A stretch of 64,000 nucleotides of DNA from Candidatus Latescibacterota bacterium (GTDB lineage Bacteria; Latescibacterota; UBA2968; UBA8231): contig OY730476.1 of assembly GCA_963422735.1 (NCBI GenBank), forward strand, positions 96,001-160,000. The letters run 5' to 3'. The stretch's first letter is position 1. The number at the start of each line of letters is the position of its first letter. Under the pieces are notes generated by a model that was not told where the DNA came from, ran no database searches, and worked only from the letters and a program-made list of their open reading frames with translations. Position numbers and translations under genes: made by a program. Positions 3,734 through 13,164 of this stretch are shown here, piece by piece.

Positions 3734-4470
3734 GCGAAAACCTGCAACGCTTCTTGTGGACGGCGTACGACCGTTTGGGCGGGCTGGTGGGCTACAACTT
3801 GCTGTGGAGCGCGTTGAGCCTGCCTTGGATCGGCGGGGCCTACCTGCTTTTGCAGCTGGGGTTTGGGCTGGGCGGCTTGGGCTTGATGGGGGCTGTCGTC
3901 TTAGCTGGTACCTTGCTGTTGAGCTCACCGGCCACGGCGATGCTTTTCGCCGCTGGGGCGGCTTGGGTGCAGGGCAGGGACTTTGGCCTGCGAGAGTTCT
4001 GGGCGGCTGGCCGCGCGCTTTTTTGGCGCGCCCTCGCGCTGGGGTTGCTGATGGTCGCCGCTGTCGCACTGGTACTGGCCAACGTGGTTTTTTACCAGCA
4101 GATCGGCGGCTGGCTGGGGGTGTTTTTGGGTGGGCTGATGGTCTGGTTTCTGCTGCTGGTGGGCATGGTCGCAGTGTATGTTTTTCCGGTGCTGGTCACT
4201 CAGGAAGGGTCGGTGTGGGCCACGGTGCGCTACAGCTTTCTCCTGTCGGTTGATAATGTAAAGCTCTCGCTAGTTTTTCTACTGAGTGCAGGCTTGGCTT
4301 TGGGCCTTGGCGTCGCTTCTGGAGTGGGTTTGTTCTGCGGCGGCTTGGCGGCTTGGGCCCTGTGGATCAGCGTCGGCTTTCGTGCACTCTTGCCCAAGTA
4401 CACAGGCCAGTCTCTGCCCAGTGAAGCCCCGCGCCGGCTGCGCGAACTAATTCGCCCTTGGGAGGCTTGA
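3730..4470 (+). CDS. integral membrane protein (DUF624/YesL-like)
   Basis: several hydrophobic segments, NLLW..LSLP and PATAMLFA patterns; TTGA overlap with the upstream gene. Confidence 0.7.
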   Translation: MSENLQRFLWTAYDRLGGLVGYNLLWSALSLPWIGGAYLLLQLGFGLGGLGLMGAVVLAGTLLLSSPATAMLFAAGAAWVQGRDFGLREFWAAGRALFWRALALGLLMVAAVALVLANVVFYQQIGGWLGVFLGGLMVWFLLLVGMVAVYVFPVLVTQEGSVWATVRYSFLLSVDNVKLSLVFLLSAGLALGLGVASGVGLFCGGLAAWALWISVGFRALLPKYTGQSLPSEAPRRLRELIRPWEA

Positions 4471-4473
4471 GCA

Positions 4474-6036
4474 TTGGACTTGCCCAAACTGGTAACGGGC
4501 CGAGAAATGGCTGCGGTCGATCGGCGCACCATCGCCGAGGCGGGCATCCCCAGTGCCGAACTCATAGAGCGGGCCGGTACAGAGGTGGTTGCGGCCATTG
4601 CAGCGCGTTGGGATGGGTTGGCCGGTTTGCAGGTCGTGGTGCTGTGCGGGAAAGGCAACAATGGTGGCGATGGGTTTGCCGTGGCGCGGCTCTTGCGCGC
4701 TGGCGGTGGTTCGGCGCGCGTCTTCCTCGCGGCAGACCGCGCTGCCGTACAAGGGGCCGCAGCCGAGCACTTGCGGCGTTGCGAACAGGCGGGCTGTGCT
4801 ATCGAAGTGATCGGCGAGGATGTAGCTCCGCTCGACGCCGCCCTCCGCGAAGCCGACTTGGTGATTGACGCGCTTTTGGGGACCGGATTGCGAGGGGCAC
4901 CCCGTCCCTCCATTGCGCGCGTCATTGCGCGCATTGCCCATTGTGCGCGGCCGGTAGTGGCCGTGGATATCCCCTCGGGGGTCGAAGCCGACACCGGGCG
5001 GGTCCACGGCGCGGCCGTTCAAGCGATGCTGACGGTGACTTTCGGATTGGTCAAAGTCGGGCAGTTGTTCTACCCCGGCCGGTCGCATTGCGGTGCATTG
5101 CACTTGGCCAATATCGGCTTCCCCGAGTTCATTCTGTGCGATGCGGTTGCCCAAGCTCTGCTGCTTTCCGCCGAAGGGGTGGGGCCTTTAGTGCCTCGGC
5201 GTCGTGGCGACGAGCACAAGGGAAGCTGCGGGACAGTGGCCGTGGTCGCGGGTTCGGTGGGCATGACCGGAGCGGCCGCACTGACGGCGGATGCCGCGCT
5301 CAGGAGCGGGGCCGGCCGCGTCCATCTAGGAGTGCCGGCAAGTCTCAACGACGTTCTCGAAATCAAGCTCTCTGAGGTGATGACCCGGCCGTTGCCTGAA
5401 GTGCGCAAGCGGCGCTGTTTGTCGCTGCGGGCCTTGGGCGCGGTGTGCGCTATGTTGACGCGAGCCGATGTCTTGGGATTGGGGCCGGGTTTGGGGTGCT
5501 ATCGAGAGACCGAGGAACTGGTGCGACGGTTGGTGTTGCAAGCCGAACTGCCCCTCGTTCTGGATGCGGACGGACTGAACTCTTTCGCCGGGCGAGCCGA
5601 TGCCCTAAAGGACCGCTCGGCACCGCTGGTCCTCACGCCCCATGTGGGCGAGTTAGCCCGCTTGAGCGGGTTGGACAAGCGGCAGATTGTCGACGCGCCC
5701 ATGGCCGTGGCCCGCGACTTTGCCGGCGAATTCGGCGCGACGCTCGTGTTGAAGGGCGCACCGACCGTCGTGGCTTTGAGCGATGGGCGCGTGGCGGTCA
5801 ACTCCACGGGCAATGCGGGCATGGCCACGGCCGGGTCGGGCGACGTGCTGACCGGGATCATCGCCGGGTTGATGGCCCAAGGGCTAGGTGCGGAGGCTGC
5901 GGCCTGTCTCGGAGTCTACGTCCACGGCCGGGCCGGCGATCGGGCGGGCGAGCGGCTGGGGGAATGGGGGATGCGGGCGGGCGATATAGCCGACGAAATC
6001 GCCTTGGCCATGGTGGATGCGGCGCGATCTGCTTGA
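4474..6036 (+). CDS. nnr: bifunctional NAD(P)H-hydrate epimerase/dehydratase
   Basis: GKGNNGGDG, DALLGTG, AVDIPSG, HKGSCG, VLDADGL, LTPHVGE, MATAGSGDVLTG. Confidence 0.95.
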   Translation: MDLPKLVTGREMAAVDRRTIAEAGIPSAELIERAGTEVVAAIAARWDGLAGLQVVVLCGKGNNGGDGFAVARLLRAGGGSARVFLAADRAAVQGAAAEHLRRCEQAGCAIEVIGEDVAPLDAALREADLVIDALLGTGLRGAPRPSIARVIARIAHCARPVVAVDIPSGVEADTGRVHGAAVQAMLTVTFGLVKVGQLFYPGRSHCGALHLANIGFPEFILCDAVAQALLLSAEGVGPLVPRRRGDEHKGSCGTVAVVAGSVGMTGAAALTADAALRSGAGRVHLGVPASLNDVLEIKLSEVMTRPLPEVRKRRCLSLRALGAVCAMLTRADVLGLGPGLGCYRETEELVRRLVLQAELPLVLDADGLNSFAGRADALKDRSAPLVLTPHVGELARLSGLDKRQIVDAPMAVARDFAGEFGATLVLKGAPTVVALSDGRVAVNSTGNAGMATAGSGDVLTGIIAGLMAQGLGAEAAACLGVYVHGRAGDRAGERLGEWGMRAGDIADEIALAMVDAARSA

Positions 6037-6125: not shown

Positions 6126-6620
6126 ATGGCCGACGTCAAAGATGCCATTGAAGAAATGATCGAAGAGTCGTACTTGCTGGGGCTTTCGGAAGACGAGATC
6201 CTCGCGGATTTCAGCCGCTTTATCGATACCTGCTATACCGTTATTCAGGACAATGTAAAAAGCCGCGAAGCCCTTAGCTGCTTGGCCGGGAATTTGGCGC
6301 GGGAGAAGACCAGTACTCGCAGCGCCGATCGTTCCACCGCGCTGGGCAAGGTCGCGGCCAAGGACGCCCAGCGAGCCTGCGCTGAAAAAGCGGCGCGCCG
6401 CAAGCGCATGGTCCTAAAGGCCATTGCCGACTACGACCCCCACCTCGTCCTCCTCATCAACGAGCAGCGCTTTCAGGTAGATATCAAGGAAGAAGTGGCG
6501 CCCCCCAAGCTCAAGGTCCGTCAGGGTCGCGATTGGGAGCACTACGGCCAGCTCTTGCTCAAAGCCGGCTACACCACTGTAATCGCGCTCATCTTATTCC
6601 TCATATATTTAAGGTTTTAA
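6126..6620 (+). CDS. hypothetical protein with C-terminal transmembrane anchor
   Basis: MADVKDAIEEMIEESY...; ends TTVIALILFLIYLRF; the longer 5445 ORF overlaps nnr. Confidence 0.7.
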   Translation: MADVKDAIEEMIEESYLLGLSEDEILADFSRFIDTCYTVIQDNVKSREALSCLAGNLAREKTSTRSADRSTALGKVAAKDAQRACAEKAARRKRMVLKAIADYDPHLVLLINEQRFQVDIKEEVAPPKLKVRQGRDWEHYGQLLLKAGYTTVIALILFLIYLRF

Positions 6621-6738
6621 CCGTTTGCACCTGAAATTTGGACTGTGGTCTGTGCAGATACGGCACCAGCGCAAATTCGCGTAAATCTATAGCCAGTATA
6701 GCCAAAATTTGCCTTTGTTGAGGTTCCGCAAATTCGCA

Positions 6739-7328
6739 ATAACTACGGATTTACTGCCCGATTTTATCCGCCAGCACTACGAAGTCCACCAGTGGAAGTA
6801 CGCCTGGGCTATTATTGAACGAGGACTTTCCCGATGAGTGGAACGACATCCTTGCGGTCTTGCAGGAGTTTCGTCTTAGAAAAAGCTGGATAGTGAATCA
6901 TGGTGGCCGGAAATCCGCGATTTCGTCTTTCATTGACAATTATCTATACGAAAGAGCTTGGCAAGAAAAGGAATTCTCAACGAGGGTTGTAATAGACGAA
7001 GCTAGCCGCGATACGCCAACGTACAAAATAGACTGTTTCCGCAATCGAGTGGCTCTCGAAATAGAATGACACAACAAGGATCCATTCCACGACCGGGGCT
7101 TGAATAACTTCAGGCTTCTTTTCGATCTTCTTGCCATTAGCGTCGGGGCATTGCCCTTCGGTGCGATGAACTCCAGGACCTCTTCAATGCCCTGAACAAA
7201 GGGCCGTCTTACGGGGCATCGACAACGCATATAAGCAAGTTACTTCTGCGAATCGAAGGAGGCGGAGGGGCGGCTGTCCCATCTTGGTGTTCGGCATCTC
7301 GAAAAAGCTGTATATAGAGGATGAGTGA
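6739..7328 (+). pseudogene. BglII/BstYI-family type II restriction endonuclease, disrupted
   Basis: stitched frames read TDLLPDFIRQHYEVHQWKYA / LNEDFPDEW...GGRKS...KIDCFRNRVALEIE*HNKDPF..R.LNNFRLLFDL / RCDELQDLF..YGASTTH..KLL.RIEGGG / GCPILVFGISKKLYIEDE; start codon appears as ATA, one TGA at a conserved Trp, about three frameshifts. Confidence 0.85.
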
Positions 7329-7687
7329 ATGACCGCAGCCAACGATTTGCTTGCCTCAGTCGGCGAGCGGAAGTTTTCGACCCTTCTCGCCGATCCGCCG
7401 TGGCAGTTCCACAACCGGACGGGCAATATGGCACCAGAACACCGGCGTCTGTCTCGGTATTCGACCATGGCTTTGCAGGACATTGAGTGCTTGCCGATCG
7501 AATCGATTGCCGAGGAAACCGCGCATCTGTACTTGTGAATACCCAACGCGCTATTGGCGCACGGGCTGCAAGTGATGGATCGTTGGGGATTCAACTACAA
7601 GACGAACATCGTCTGGTACAAGGGGCGAAAAGACGGCGGACCGGACCGGCGGGGCGTGGGATTCTACTTTCGCAATGTGACGGAAAT
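7329..7687 (+). pseudogene. MT-A70 family adenine methyltransferase, premature stop and 3' truncation
   Basis: LADPPWQF, AHLYL*IPNALL (TGA at a Trp position), [24 protein letters not shown], then runs into the carB fragment. Confidence 0.85.
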
Positions 7688-8018
7688 CGGCCACGATTAT
7701 GACCGATCCAGAGGTGGCTCATCGGACCTACATTGAGCCGATCACGCCGGAGATTTTCGCGCGGATCATCGCCGTGGAAAAGCCGCAGGCCCTGCTGCCG
7801 ACGCTTGGAGGCCAAACCGCGCTCAACGCGGCGGTGGCCTTGGCCGAAAGCGGTACCCTCTCCGAGCACGGCGTCGAGATGATCGGCGCTCGGATCGAGG
7901 CTATCAAGATGGCCGAAGACCGCGAGTGCTTCAAAGCGGCTATGGGCCGGGTTGGACATGCCTCGCGGATCTTTTGTCCACAGTCTTGAAGAGGCGCAAA
8001 AGAACCAAGCTGAATTGG
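7685..8018 (+). pseudogene. diverged internal fragment of carB
   Basis: aligns by eye to 10093-10432 (MTDPEVA...YIEPITPE...[19 protein letters not shown]) with many third-position differences and a 5-nt deletion near 7948. Confidence 0.9.
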
Positions 8019-8105
8019 AATCGCCCAAGGCTGTAAAACCTGTGGCTGCGGCCCGCTTAGGTATATATCCCCATGGCTAGACGAAAGATGTGGTAGGACC
8101 AGTTA

Positions 8106-8378
8106 GTGTGGATGAGTGATGATGAGGCAGTGGGTGGCGGCGGTAAGCACTGTACAGCCGACTGCTACATTCAATGGGGTTGCGATTCCTGTAAGGGTCG
8201 AAGTTGCTTTTTTATCCTTTTTGTTCTGGTTTGCCGCACTGTCTGCAATGATACAGGCGGAATAGGATGTCTCTATGGAGAAGACCATAGAAATGCTAAC
8301 TGTGCCCATCGGTGTCAGGGAGTTGTTTGTGGTGCAACCTCTGCGTGTTCATGCACAGTCGGTCTATGTTATTGTTAG
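8106..8378 (+). CDS. Cys-rich small peptide (15 Cys in 90 aa), possible defensin-like/RiPP precursor
   Basis: AGGA 7 nt before GTG; acidic SDDEAVGGGG followed by a Cys-dense core ending CSCTVGLCYC; next gene starts 12 nt after the stop. Confidence 0.65.
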   Translation: MWMSDDEAVGGGGKHCTADCYIQWGCDSCKGRSCFFILFVLVCRTVCNDTGGIGCLYGEDHRNANCAHRCQGVVCGATSACSCTVGLCYC

Positions 8379-8390
8379 AAAGGCGAGACA

Positions 8391-9269
8391 ATGTCAATCT
8401 CCAAAAAGCTATTTTACTGTCTATTTACGCAGATACTTTGCCTTGTTGGACACGGAGAGGCACAAAAGACTAGGCCAAGCACGATAACGATCTATGATAG
8501 CAATGAGGTTCCCCATCTGATGCTGGAGCCTCTTCCATGGCCTTCAAGTCTCGATTTGCCTGATCTACAAGAGGAACTGGAAAGAGAGGACTTTGCTGCG
8601 TGTGAGACGAAACTCCTTGGAGTATTATCTCAGGTGGGCAGTGGCTCAAAAGCCGAGGCTGCTGTGTATAACGCGTTAGGTTCCTTTGCGATGGCTCAAG
8701 CGGATATTTCCTCTTCAGAAGCCGAGGAGTTGCTCCATATTCATAGGGCAGCTAACTATTTCTCAAAGGGCGATTCAATAGCAAGTTATAGGCCTATTGA
8801 ACTTAGGATCCACCGGGCACACCTTATCCACAACGGAGCAGATACACTGCACCGCTTGGGAAAAGTCCAAGAAGCTCTCCTGAAAACCGAGGAGTTACTG
8901 CATGGCTTTGAAGGAGTAGGAACTGGTCGCATGAAGGATGCGTTGGTTGCCAGAGCCCTCCAAAAGGTAGCGATGCTTCGCCGGGCATTGGGACATGACA
9001 ATCAGTCAGTTGCATCGTTTCTAGACAGCCACACGGATCATACGAGCGAGTTGGTGGCCCTAGTCGCCAAGAGGGAGTTTCTGAGAACACAACTACATAC
9101 GGGAGATATCGATCATGCCCAGACCAGACTCGATCAAATGAAGTCTGAGTACGCGGGAAGAGATTCAGTCGGTCACCTATCGGTCGTCAGCATAATCCAA
9201 TTATTTGACGGTATGATCGAGAGCATCAGTGAGACTGGAAAGGCGGCTACTCCGACGCACGAGCATTGA
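8391..9269 (+). CDS. secreted alpha-helical/TPR-like protein
   Basis: signal-like N-terminus ending GEA-Q; TPR-like segments AVYNALG, ADTLHRLGKVQEA, TGDIDHA; lower GC than the backbone. Confidence 0.7.
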   Translation: MSISKKLFYCLFTQILCLVGHGEAQKTRPSTITIYDSNEVPHLMLEPLPWPSSLDLPDLQEELEREDFAACETKLLGVLSQVGSGSKAEAAVYNALGSFAMAQADISSSEAEELLHIHRAANYFSKGDSIASYRPIELRIHRAHLIHNGADTLHRLGKVQEALLKTEELLHGFEGVGTGRMKDALVARALQKVAMLRRALGHDNQSVASFLDSHTDHTSELVALVAKREFLRTQLHTGDIDHAQTRLDQMKSEYAGRDSVGHLSVVSIIQLFDGMIESISETGKAATPTHEH

Positions 9270-9324
9270 AACAAGTGGCGGCATTTTCAGACAGAAAGCT
9301 AAGTTGAAAGGAGTGGACAGCTCA

Positions 9325-9782
9325 ATGAGTCGTCGTCGATTCGACAGAGGAATGCTTCTTTATGCTGCACTGGTAGTAAGTGCTGCTAGCGGCGTCAACT
9401 CTCAGCCTAATGTGGCACAAGTACGGTTGGGGTTCGGAGAAAACAGGCTACCGATCCGCATATATATGTAGGGCGATGCCTTTTCGCGCTTGAACGTAAC
9501 GGCGAGGCGATTACCTTTCTAAACACAGGCTTATCTCTCAAAGCTCTCGTTCGGGAGCACTTTGACTTGGCTGTGCCGTTACTGGTCAGAGCACATGTTT
9601 CAAACGGGATGCCGGTTCGCGGAGCTGAAATCCTCTCAGAATTTTCTTCAAAAATGTCTCCTGAGGTTCATGCTGGCACTATCTCCGCTCTCAGGACGGA
9701 GTCCGACCGAATAGACCTATATGCTCACGGCCGACTGCGGTGCCGAGATGCCCGATGGGGCCAAGGCGGCCGAGTGATCTGA
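9325..9782 (+). pseudogene. disrupted secreted TPR-like protein
   Basis: GGAG RBS, MSRRRFDRGMLLYAALVVSAASG signal-like start; after a frame change near 9445 reads HIYVGRCLFALERNGEAITFLNTGL...LLVRAHVSNG. Confidence 0.5.
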
Positions 9783-9945
9783 GGGCCATTGTCTCCTGTG
9801 CCTCGGCCGGTTTATCTCATTGACGATCGGCTACGTGGCTGCCGTTGTTATGATTGCACTTAGGGTGTATTCCGAGTCCTTGATTGAGCCTGTCCTCTGT
9901 TATGTCGAGTGATACCTCTTCCTTTTGTACGATTGAAAGCACTCC

Positions 9946-12900
9946 ATGCCCAAACGCACAGACATTCAAAAAATAATGCTCATCGGCTCCGGTCCGATCG
10001 TCATTGGCCAAGCCTGCGAGTTTGATTATTCGGGAACGCAAGCCTGTAAGGCACTGGCCGAAGAAGGCTACGACATCGTCTTGGTCAACAGCAATCCGGC
10101 GACGATTATGACTGATCCAGAGGTGGCCGACCGCACCTACATCGAGCCGATCACGCCGGAAATTTGCACGCGGATCATCGCCGTGGAAAAGCCGCAGGCC
10201 CTCCTGCCGACGCTCGGGGGCCAAACCGCGCTCAACGCGGCGGTGGTCTTGGCCGAAAGCGGCACCCTCGCCGAGCACGGCGTCGAGCTGATCGGCGCTC
10301 GGCTCGAGGCCATCAAGATGGCCGAAGACCGCGAACTCTTCAAAGCGGCCATGGACCGGACCGGGTTGGACATGCCCCGTGGGGCCTTTGTCCACAGCCT
10401 CGAAGAGGCCCAAAAGCATCAAGCCGACTTGGGCTACCCGACGATCATCCGCCCCGCCTTTACGATGGGAGGCTCAGGCGGCGGCGTGGCGTACAACGCC
10501 GAGGAATTTGAGCGGATCGTGCGCCACGGCCTCGACCTAAGCCCGATCGACGAGGTGCTGATCGAGGAATCGGTCCTCGGGTGGAAGGAATTTGAGCTGG
10601 AAGTCATGCGCGATCACCGCGACAACGTGGTCATAATCTGCTCGATTGAAAACTTCGACCCCATGGGGATCCACACCGGCGACAGCATCACGGTCGCGCC
10701 GGCGCAGACCTTGTCCGATAAGGAATATCAGCACATGCGCGACGCGGCCATCCGCATCATGCGCGAGATCGGCGTAGATACCGGCGGATCCAATATCCAG
10801 TTCGCGGTCAATCCCACAGACGGCCGCATGGTCGTCATCGAGATGAACCCCCGGGTCTCGCGCTCTTCGGCGCTGGCGTCCAAAGCAACGGGCTTTCCCA
10901 TCGCCAAGATCGCCGCCAAACTGGCTGTGGGCTACGCGCTGGACGAAATCCGCAACGACATCACCCGCGAGACCCCGGCCTCCTTTGAGCCGACCATCGA
11001 CTACGTGGTGACCAAAATTCCGCGCTTTACCTTTGAGAAATTTCCCAGCACGCCAGACGCCCTCGACACCCAGATGCGCTCGGTAGGGGAAACCATGGCC
11101 ATTGGCCGCACCTTCAAGGAGTCCCTGCAAAAGGGCCTGCGCTCGCTGGAGGTCGGCCGCGCGGGTTTTGGTGCCGACGGCAAGGACCTTACAGCGGCCA
11201 AAGTGGCCGACAAGGAACTGCGCGAGAAATTGATGCGCCCCAACTCCCAGCGCATGTTCTACCTCAAGCTGGCCATCGCCAAAGGCTACACCCACGACGA
11301 GATATATGGCCTCACCGGCATTGATCCGTGGTTTCTCGACCAGCTCTACCAACTTTTTGAACTCGAACGACAGCTAGCGCGGGCAGATGCGCTCGCCGAT
11401 GCCGCCATGTTGCGCCGCGCCAAGGAGTGGGGATTTAGCGACCGCCAGCTCGCGCATCTCAACGGCTGCGACGAGGCGAGTGTCCGTCGGCGTCGCCTCG
11501 AGTTGGACATTCGCCCAGTGTACAAAACAGTTGATACCTGCGCCGCTGAGTTCGAAGCCCACACGCCCTACCACTACTCGACATACGACCGCGAGGACGA
11601 AGTGCAGCGCTCGACGCGCAAAAAAATCGCCATCCTCGGCGGCGGGCCGAACCGCATCGGCCAGGGGATTGAGTTCGATTACTGCTGCGTCCACGCGTGT
11701 TTCGCGCTGCGCGAAATCGGCTATGAGACCATCATGATCAACTCCAATCCCGAGACGGTCAGCACGGATTACGACACGGCCGACAAACTCTATTTCGAGC
11801 CGCTGACAATCGAGGACGTGCTGCACATCGTCGAGCGCGAAGCCCCAGACGGCGTCATCGTGCAGTTCGGGGGGCAAACCCCGCTGAACTTGGCGGTCGA
11901 ACTAGAGCGCGAGGGCGTGCCCATCCTCGGCACCTCGCCCCGCAGCATCGACTTGGCCGAGGATCGCCAGCGCTTCGGCCAGTTGTTGAGCGAACTGGGC
12001 ATCCGCCAGCCGGCAAATGGCATGGCTGCCAGTTGTGCCGAGGCGTGCGCTGTTGCCGCGCAGATCGGCTTCCCGGTCTTGGTGCGGCCCTCGTACGTGC
12101 TCGGCGGGCGGGCCATGGTCGTGGCATACGATGTCGGGAGCCTCGAAACCTACATGAACGAGGCCATTGAAGTAGCGCCCGAGCGGCCCGTGCTCATCGA
12201 CCGCTACCTGCAAGGCGCGGAGGAATTCGATGTGGATGCCGTGGCCGACGGGACGGACGTGGTCGTCGGCGGGATCATGCAGCACATCGAGCACGCCGGC
12301 GTGCATTCGGGCGATAGCGCCTGCGCCTTGCCGCCCTACGACACGCCGAGCGAGCACATTGAGGCCATGCGCGAGTACACCCACGCGCTGGCGCATGCCC
12401 TCGGCGTGATCGGCCTGATGAACGTGCAATACGCCGTCCATCAAGGCGAGGTCTATGCGATTGAAGTGAATCCCCGGGCTTCGCGCACCGTGCCTTTTGT
12501 CAGCAAGGCCATTGGCCGCCCGCTGGCCAAGATCGCCGCGCGGGCCATGGTGGGGATGACCTTGCGCGAGCAGGGTTTCACCGAGGAGGTCGCGCCCGCG
12601 CACATATCCGTCAAGGAGGCCGTGCTGCCCTTTATAAAATTCCCCGGGGCCGATAGCCTGCTGGGGCCGGAGATGAAGTCCACGGGCGAAGTCATGGGCA
12701 TTGGCCGCGACTTTGGCACGGCTTTCCTCAAAGCGCAGATGGGGGCGGGTTCGCTGCTGCCGTCGCACGGCCGAGTCTTTATCAGCGTGGCCGACTGCGA
12801 TAAAGAGGAGGTCTTGCCGGTAGCCCGCCGACTGCGCGCGGCCGGATTCGAGTTGGTGGCTACACAGGGTACGCGCGACTTCCTCGGCAAGCACGACATC

Positions 12901-13164
12901 GCCGCAGAGCGGGTGCATAAAATTCACGAGGGCCGCCCGCACATCGAAGACGCGATTCGCAGCCGCCAGATTGACCTGATTATCAATACCCCTCTCGGCG
13001 AGTCTTCTCACTACGACGACTTTGCAGTGCGCCGGGCTGCGGTCGTAACCGGTGTGCCCTACACCACGACAATGGCCGGAGCCCGGGCCGCGGCCGCGGG
13101 CATTGAGGCGCTGCAACGCGCCGAGCTGGATGTGCAATCCCTGCAGGATTACCACCGGGGCTAG
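9946..13164 (+). CDS. carB: carbamoyl-phosphate synthase large subunit
   Basis: [58 protein letters not shown]-terminal MGS domain. Confidence 0.99.

Follow-up and report, generated by a model that had tools for sequence, protein, structure and literature searches.

A frame at positions 8106..8378 on the plus strand of the window (the whole stretch of 64,000 nucleotides analysed here) is most probably (about 0.8) what is left, after loss of the 5' end, of a gene whose product was a small, cysteine-rich protein exported via Sec and belonging to a very rare orphan family. The frame had been read in an earlier note on this DNA as an attractive candidate bacteriocin, and this reading is corrected here. 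The genome's own copy would be a relic of little interest, whereas the intact orphan exported family in sister species provides a modest lead.

The cysteine-rich frame and its lost start

The remnant starts with GTG and contains 90 codons without any internal stop, 15 of which encode cysteine (nine TGT and six TGC). This number exceeds chance: mononucleotide shuffles of the ORF gave 4.28 +/- 1.97 in-frame cysteine codons, with a maximum of 14, and at least 15 were reached in 0 of the 20000 shuffles. With a cysteine fraction of 0.161, the frame ranks first among the 559 frames of the window (stop-to-stop, at least 60 aa); a minus-strand frame elsewhere in the window reaches 0.140 (16 Cys in 114 aa). 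The cysteines are spaced as ...C-x10-C-x3-C-x4-C-x5-C-x-C-x4-C-x-C, and the cysteine-bearing motifs of the protein include three CxxxC, one CxxC and two CxC. A hydrophobic stretch (FFILFVLV) is also present in the product. An AGGA sits 7 nt 5' of the GTG, and a mini-ORF of eight codons (MARRKMW followed by TAG, 8073..8096) begins 33 nt upstream in the same frame. The earlier note had described the 90-aa frame, its 15 cysteines and their spacing, the FFILFVLV stretch and the in-frame MARRKMW-TAG, and all of these were confirmed. It had also proposed two modules; BLASTP of the two protein halves against each other gave no alignments at E <= 100. A second copy of the gene is absent from the 4.95-Mb genome that carries the window (G000).

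The DNA alignment with the genomes of two sister species (G019 and G013) showed a net gap of 232 bp in the window, which covers about 175 nt ahead of the gene together with its ATG and codons 1-19. The blastn matches to both genomes break at 8115/8120 of the window, and the homology to the 104-codon gene begins at about 8120, which corresponds to codon 20 (DEAVGGGG...). The preceding spacer (8019..8119, plus strand) is homologous to the non-coding stretch between a carB fragment (carB') and the cysteine-rich gene in relatives; it holds the mini-ORF and also the junction, which lies within 8104..8120. Both candidate starts, GTG 8106 and ATG 8112, correspond to non-coding sequence in the relatives. 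The intact form was also found in a 4235-nt contig (X14) from a sponge metatranscriptome library, which has 247 letters between 8104 and 8120. An assembly error is ruled out as the source of the deletion by a 1436-nt contig from an independent run, which matches positions 7947-9382 of the window with 0 differences. Moreover, five additional runs contain 0.99 of the sampled words, as judged by word sampling only. Two other runs (X8 and X7) cover the region in part and count for their covered portions alone.

The MARRK mini-ORF of G019 begins 223 nt before the ATG of the gene and is out of frame; its in-frame position in the window results solely from the deletion. The suggestion of a formerly longer N-terminus in the earlier note is right in essence: a lost part exists (codons 1-19, with the signal peptide), but this part is not MARRKMW. 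The headless state of the window copy is derived, since signal-like N-termini occur in the distant homologues (P0002 and P0003) as well. Besides the ATG and the first 19 codons, the deletion took the sequence ahead of the gene with its ribosome-binding site, and the remainder cannot be exported. The remnant is probably non-functional, because both the start and the export signal are lost, although the open frame and the AGGA before the GTG might still permit some translation.

Within the frame, the window differs from G019 at 17 positions and from G013 at 20, of which 12 and 13 are third positions, and the dN/dS values are 0.11 and 0.14, respectively. The remaining five reading frames have more non-synonymous changes than the cysteine-rich frame, and all 15 cysteines are retained relative to both genomes. 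As controls, the dN/dS of the 292-aa neighbour is 0.15-0.20, and that of the carB' fragment, which is broken in the window, is 0.14. These ratios indicate past selection and are silent on the present state, because the broken carB' gives the same value. It is very unlikely that the shortened frame has taken on a new leaderless or cytoplasmic role, with translation starting at GTG 8106 or ATG 8112. Although the 90 open codons, the AGGA before the GTG and the full set of cysteines would suit such a role, neither the 175 nt on the promoter side nor the original ribosome-binding site is left, and a recent deletion explains the conservation equally well, as the ratio of the broken carB' illustrates. 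Other genes of the same island are also decaying, and a protein with 15 cysteines would be expected to fold in the reducing cytoplasm unlike the exported form.

A 68-aa minus-strand frame (8103-8309) mirrors the cysteine-rich frame, with the cysteine codons being read as Ala or Thr. Next to no weight can be given to the view that the plus-strand frame is not a gene, but a chance open frame or the mirror of this minus-strand frame. The homologues of about 40% identity have kept 13 cysteine columns and signal-like N-termini. The third-position bias is seen only in the plus frame (12 synonymous and 5 non-synonymous changes); the minus frame, which is the best of its strand, has 9 synonymous and 8 non-synonymous changes relative to G019 and is not coding-like. 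On the other side, the minus-strand frame is indeed open, and six-frame translation of GC-rich DNA can yield cysteine-rich frames, for example the 16 Cys in 114 aa mentioned above. The reading of 8106..8378 as the remnant of a real gene is preferred.

Intact homologues and the orphan family

The relatives of the cysteine-rich protein are very few. The word-indexed search of 5.8 billion proteins found P0001 (104 aa) as the sole relative. HMMER against 1.84 billion representative proteins gave three matches at E <= 0.001, namely P0001, P0002 (103 aa, 43% identity, E 4e-6) and P0003 (113 aa, 44% identity, E 8e-4), and a profile search of the 5.8 billion proteins again returned only these three. 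The six-frame search of 61 related genomes revealed real matches only in G019 (E 6e-54) and G013 (E 8e-53), the remaining rows having E >= 0.02. The gene is found in 3 of the 168 genomes of the phylum, all of which belong to one genus (3 of 31 genomes, with the window's own genome included). Among 185,579 species genomes scanned with a pattern, the only confirmed carriers were the G019/G013 MAGs (JAJEEZ010000412.1 and JAJDVZ010000042.1; Candidatus Latescibacterota). None of the 298 pattern matches in JGI metagenome contigs, and none of the 44 in IMG/VR viral contigs, was confirmed as a relative, and the tblastn search of plasmids and phages gave zero matches to the protein.

Searches of Pfam and NCBIfam, bacteriocin and leader models included, detected no family at E <= 1. 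The look-alikes in the ESM Atlas reached a top score of 0.77 in unnamed clusters, which is below the useful level. A literature search on Latescibacter* and cysteine-rich proteins (main texts) found no account of the family. In the alignment of the five sequences (G019, G013, P0001, P0002 and P0003), 13 cysteine columns are invariant, together with W38, H82-R83 and the C-terminal GLCYC, and homologues with about 40% identity still share the cysteine columns. Judged from the alignment and the searches, the family is real but tiny, and previously undescribed. The earlier note had proposed an undescribed cysteine-rich protein, and the absence of a Pfam or NCBIfam match, the three relatives among 1.84 billion proteins and the cysteines kept at about 40% identity all agree with it; its call for homologues with conserved cysteines is answered by the same five sequences. 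The family is of interest for its 13 invariant cysteine columns, shared by three lineages among billions of proteins.

The intact protein has 104 aa in G019, G013 and P0001. Its N-terminus consists of MSK, a hydrophobic core of 11-12 residues and LPDEAVGGGG, followed by the cysteine-rich part. P0002 and P0003 likewise start with a basic residue and then a hydrophobic core. The peak Kyte-Doolittle mean over 11 residues is 2.7-2.8 in P0001, P0002 and P0003, versus 0.08 in the N-terminus of the window frame, and K or R is present among the first 5 residues of the three proteins. These N-termini have the features expected of Sec-type (type I) signal peptides, namely a basic start, a hydrophobic core (10-15 residues) and a polar region leading to the mature part, and G019 and G013 share the first residues of P0001; the window frame lacks these features. 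The signal-peptide calls were made from hydrophobicity and reading by eye. DEAVGGGG follows the predicted signal peptide and is taken as the start of the mature protein. The LMLAC in the signal peptide was considered as a lipoprotein motif and rejected; its Cys is residue 11, a position that is not a Cys in P0002 or P0003.

The mature parts of the Latescibacterota member (P0001), P0002 and P0003 contain 15, 15 and 14 cysteines, with pI values of 6.0, 8.7 and 8.9, respectively. They also contain 7-10 aromatic residues and a hydrophobic hairpin-like stretch. The precursor of the intact form would cross the inner membrane via Sec, and signal peptidase I would remove the signal. The mature part (about 85 aa) might then fold as a compact, mainly beta, cysteine-cross-linked mini-protein with up to seven disulfides, and the intact protein might act outside the cytoplasm. 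It might also share one transcript with the 292-aa exported protein that begins 12 nt downstream.

Leader, fold and cysteine chemistry

Double-glycine leaders comprise about 15-30 aa at the extreme N-terminus and end with GG or GA before the core, and the bacteriocins that carry them are exported by C39-peptidase ABC transporters. The N-terminus of the window frame resembles the class II double-glycine bacteriocins in having an acidic stretch followed by glycines. However, this stretch is internal in the intact protein, its glycines are not conserved, and there is no match to a leader family. The double-glycine leader proposed in the earlier note is rejected, because the motif lies behind a hydrophobic Sec-type signal in the intact homologues, GG is absent from P0002 and P0003, and no Peptidase_C39 was found in three genomes. 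The C39-peptidase exporter, which had been suggested as a check, was searched with Peptidase_C39 (PF03412) in G000, G013 and G019; it was detected in 0 of the 3 genomes, and the control was positive in 7 of 14 known genomes.

The defensin fold was also examined. The C6 framework is given as C-X5-12-C-X3-C-X9-10-C-X4-5-C-X-C in the account of actifensin (PMC6989792). The same source describes actifensin as a 37-aa mature peptide with six cysteines and three disulfides, preceded by a leader of 32 aa, in which GA is the cleavage signal for export by an ABC transporter (PMC6989792). None of the three members (P0001, P0002 and P0003) matched the published C6 framework, even when extra loop cysteines were allowed, and the strict CS-alpha-beta pattern without extra cysteines was not found in the window frame. 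A wider version (x9-11 / x4-7) matches all three members when two extra loop cysteines are skipped. Shuffling also produces it: 1020 of 20000 permutations of the 87-aa mature sequence match, as do 386 of 20000 for the last 36 aa. The profile search of 177,635 PDB sequences found no defensin, the sole match being UQCRH (E 0.093).

The CS-alpha-beta defensins, including the actifensins, resemble this protein in their small size, their high cysteine content and their synthesis as precursors from which an N-terminal portion is removed; a CxxxC and a terminal CxC are likewise common to both. They differ from it in several respects: here the mature protein measures about 85 aa and has 14-15 cysteines, a hydrophobic Sec-type signal is present, the spacing is x6 and not x4-5, and two loops contain extra cysteines. 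Of the CS-alpha-beta spacing claimed in the earlier note, the loose pattern is present when the extra cysteines are skipped, but the published C6 motif is not matched and there is no sequence link to defensins. In the CS-alpha-beta fold, the CxxxC sits on an alpha-helix that two disulfides connect to the CxC strand of a beta-sheet. The structure prediction that the same note had asked for was carried out with AlphaFold2 on 5-row alignments. The models reached a pLDDT of only 43.2 (full length) and 46.8 (mature); they consist mostly of strands, with a strand and not a helix at the C-terminal CxxxC, and the confidence is too low to count, so the models are unusable for deciding the fold. Foldseek of the mature model (pLDDT 47) against the PDB gave no match at E <= 0.001, and only five rows at E 6.7-9.8, which carry no meaning at this model confidence. 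The defensin idea is therefore unsupported, although structure has not disproved it.

A working defensin-like (CS-alpha-beta) antimicrobial precursor with an acidic double-glycine leader and a C39-peptidase ABC exporter is hardly tenable. In its favour, the loose cysteine pattern is conserved in all three members tested (5.1% of the shuffles of the mature sequence also match), and the mature parts of the two distant homologues are basic. Against it are the hydrophobic signal ahead of DEAVGGGG, the unconserved glycines and the missing Peptidase_C39, together with the unmatched C6 motif and the absence of any defensin or bacteriocin Pfam family at E <= 1. Moreover, the mature part of the Latescibacterota member has a pI of only 6.0 and about 85 aa, more than twice the length of actifensin, and the strand at the C-terminal CxxxC in both models also points away from the fold, at low confidence. 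The reading of a Sec-exported orphan protein is retained.

Searches for DSBA (PF01323), Thioredoxin_4 (PF13462), DsbB (PF02600) and VKOR (PF07884) detected none of the four in G000 (a single contig of 4.95 Mb, 95% complete), G013 (93%) or G019 (77%), with positive controls; the oxidase search covered these four Pfam families only. The combination of DsbA with DsbB or VKOR, which would be expected in the host of a Dsb-dependent envelope protein, was not found. An excess of even cysteine numbers in exported proteins is reported to go usually with DsbA plus DsbB or VKOR, and obligate anaerobes are reported to tend to keep cysteine out of exported proteins (PMC12453122). The same source notes that certain DsbA-like enzymes fall in other families (PMC12453122). 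The disulfide reading is weakened, because none of the four families was found in the three genomes and the cysteine number is odd (15) in 2 of 3 lineages. The missing Dsb and VKOR families would also suit a foreign gene that is ill matched to its host.

It is possible, at rather low odds, that the intact family is a metal-binding envelope protein, coordinating Zn, Cu or Fe via Cys and His, while the window copy is still a relic. The absence of DsbA-type enzymes, DsbB and VKOR from the three genomes, the odd cysteine number in two of three lineages, and the three CxxxC, one CxxC and two CxC motifs with the invariant H82 are consistent with this possibility. But there is no match to a metal-binding family, and the mature part, with its 7-10 aromatics and a hydrophobic stretch that resembles a hairpin, is unlike metallothioneins. 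In addition, other thioredoxin families also include DsbA-like enzymes, and extracellular oxidation requires no enzyme. The bacterial metallothioneins share with this family the high cysteine content, the CxC, CxxC and CxxxC motifs and a conserved His, and here the host is without the usual disulfide enzymes; the export signal, the many aromatic and hydrophobic residues and the absence of a family match set the family apart. If true, the metal-binding reading would provide a new small metal-binding scaffold. If the protein is disulfide-knotted, the question would be how hosts in which no DsbA, DsbB or VKOR was found oxidise it.

PorU was over the cut-off in G000, G013 and G019, and the sorting-domain matches numbered 49, 102 and 66, respectively. 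Many exported proteins would thus be made from these three genomes without the classical disulfide machinery, of which no DSBA, Thioredoxin_4, DsbB or VKOR match was found. The family resembles T9SS cargo in that its host has PorU with 49-102 sorting-domain matches per genome, and the third gene of the cassette has the domain. However, the cysteine-rich protein itself has no match to the T9SS C-terminal sorting domain (TIGR04183 / PF18962), and the signal peptide alone would lead it to the periplasm or to another exit route.

The intact members (G019, G013, P0001, P0002 and P0003) might, as a speculative and rather unlikely extension, represent a class of their own among Sec-exported mini-proteins, about 85 residues long, with 14-15 cysteines and a novel fold. 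Bacteria without classical DsbA, DsbB or VKOR would make them and employ them extracellularly, against competitors or on the tissue of the host sponge; in that case, a recently beheaded copy would lie in the window.

The cassette and its decay

The GC content of positions ~6400-10000 is 44-53%, versus about 60-70% in the flanks. This suggests that the cassette is a horizontally acquired, low-GC element with several decayed genes; no integrase was seen in it. The gene order in G019 is nnr, a small conserved protein, carB', the cysteine-rich gene, the 292-aa gene, a 219-aa gene, a 546-aa gene and the full carB. The small conserved protein (window ~6150-6620; about 165 aa in G019) has a MADVKD start and a hydrophobic end without family match, and it is kept in G013 and G019 right after nnr.

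Direct copies of the carB 5' end flank the cassette on both sides. The carB' of G019 has 183 aa and represents the first ~163 codons of carB. In the window, the carB' pseudogene fragment (7688..8018, plus strand) corresponds to about codons 51-163, has an indel of 5 nt near 7944-7950 and marks the left edge of the cassette. The same sequence recurs in direct orientation at 10097..10432, with identities of 91% and 83% between the copies. The intact carB (9946..13164, plus strand, 1072 aa) contains the right-hand copy of the bracketing repeat in its first ~490 nt. The two copies in G019 (locus L011, 4017-4316 and 8623-8922; longer extents 4017-4506 and 8623-9112) are 95% identical.

The 292-aa gene is intact (8391..9269, plus strand) and starts 12 nt past the stop of the cysteine-rich frame, behind AAGGCGAG. 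It has an N-terminal hydrophobic signal-like segment, no family match and the dN/dS of 0.15-0.20 given above. The following 219-aa gene is reduced to its first ~50 codons (9313..9471, plus strand); its full form in G019 and G013 has a T9SS C-terminal sorting domain (26.4 bits against TIGR04183, cut-off 23). Only a 3' tail remains of the 546-aa CBM9-like and TPR gene (9445..9782, plus strand), which is intact in G019 and G013. To the left of the cassette lies a decayed restriction-modification pair (6815..7736, plus strand). It consists of a BglII-like endonuclease fragment (6815..7069, plus strand; 84 aa versus 206 in G013) and two frameshifted pieces of an MT-A70 methyltransferase (7329..7538 and 7554..7736, plus strand), which are cut off by the carB' fragment. 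Both genes are intact in G013 (locus L010, 4794-6062), as a BglII-like endonuclease of 206 aa and an MT-A70 methyltransferase of 215 aa.

The cassette is intact in G019 and G013, and the window has three deletions and a frameshifted carB'. According to blastn, the first deletion (~460 bp) took the 3' end of the methyltransferase and the 5' end of carB', the second (232 bp) the 5' end of the cysteine-rich gene, and the third (~1.9 kb) the 3' end of the sorting-domain gene and most of the CBM9/TPR gene. The metatranscriptome contig X14 has 1960 letters between 9423 and 9451. Scans for sigma-70 promoters and terminators in the window and G019 gave counts no higher than those of shuffles and were uninformative. 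No Rfam or tRNA match turned up within 50 kb of the frame.

The 292-aa gene is present in 10 of the 168 genomes of the phylum. A conserved linkage of the cysteine-rich gene to this neighbour was considered and rejected: no related cysteine-rich gene was found within ~1.5 kb of the 292-aa gene at any of 8 loci in 7 other genomes. In G008 (L020), G028 (L021) and G007 (L022), the 292-aa gene stands directly before carB, and the stretch homologous to the cysteine-rich gene is missing. The linkage is therefore not obligatory, since the 292-aa gene stands without the cysteine-rich gene elsewhere. An 88-aa cysteine-rich frame in L022 (646-909) was also rejected as a candidate; its end reads like a methyltransferase off-frame.

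Thirteen of the 14 differences between the carB copies in G019 are at third positions (80 codons compared), which indicates that the copies diverged under selection on both, as if the insert had brought its own carB 5' end. The locus can be regarded as an accessory cassette at several stages of decay within one genus, and across the genus it was seen whole, partly decayed or with one gene left.
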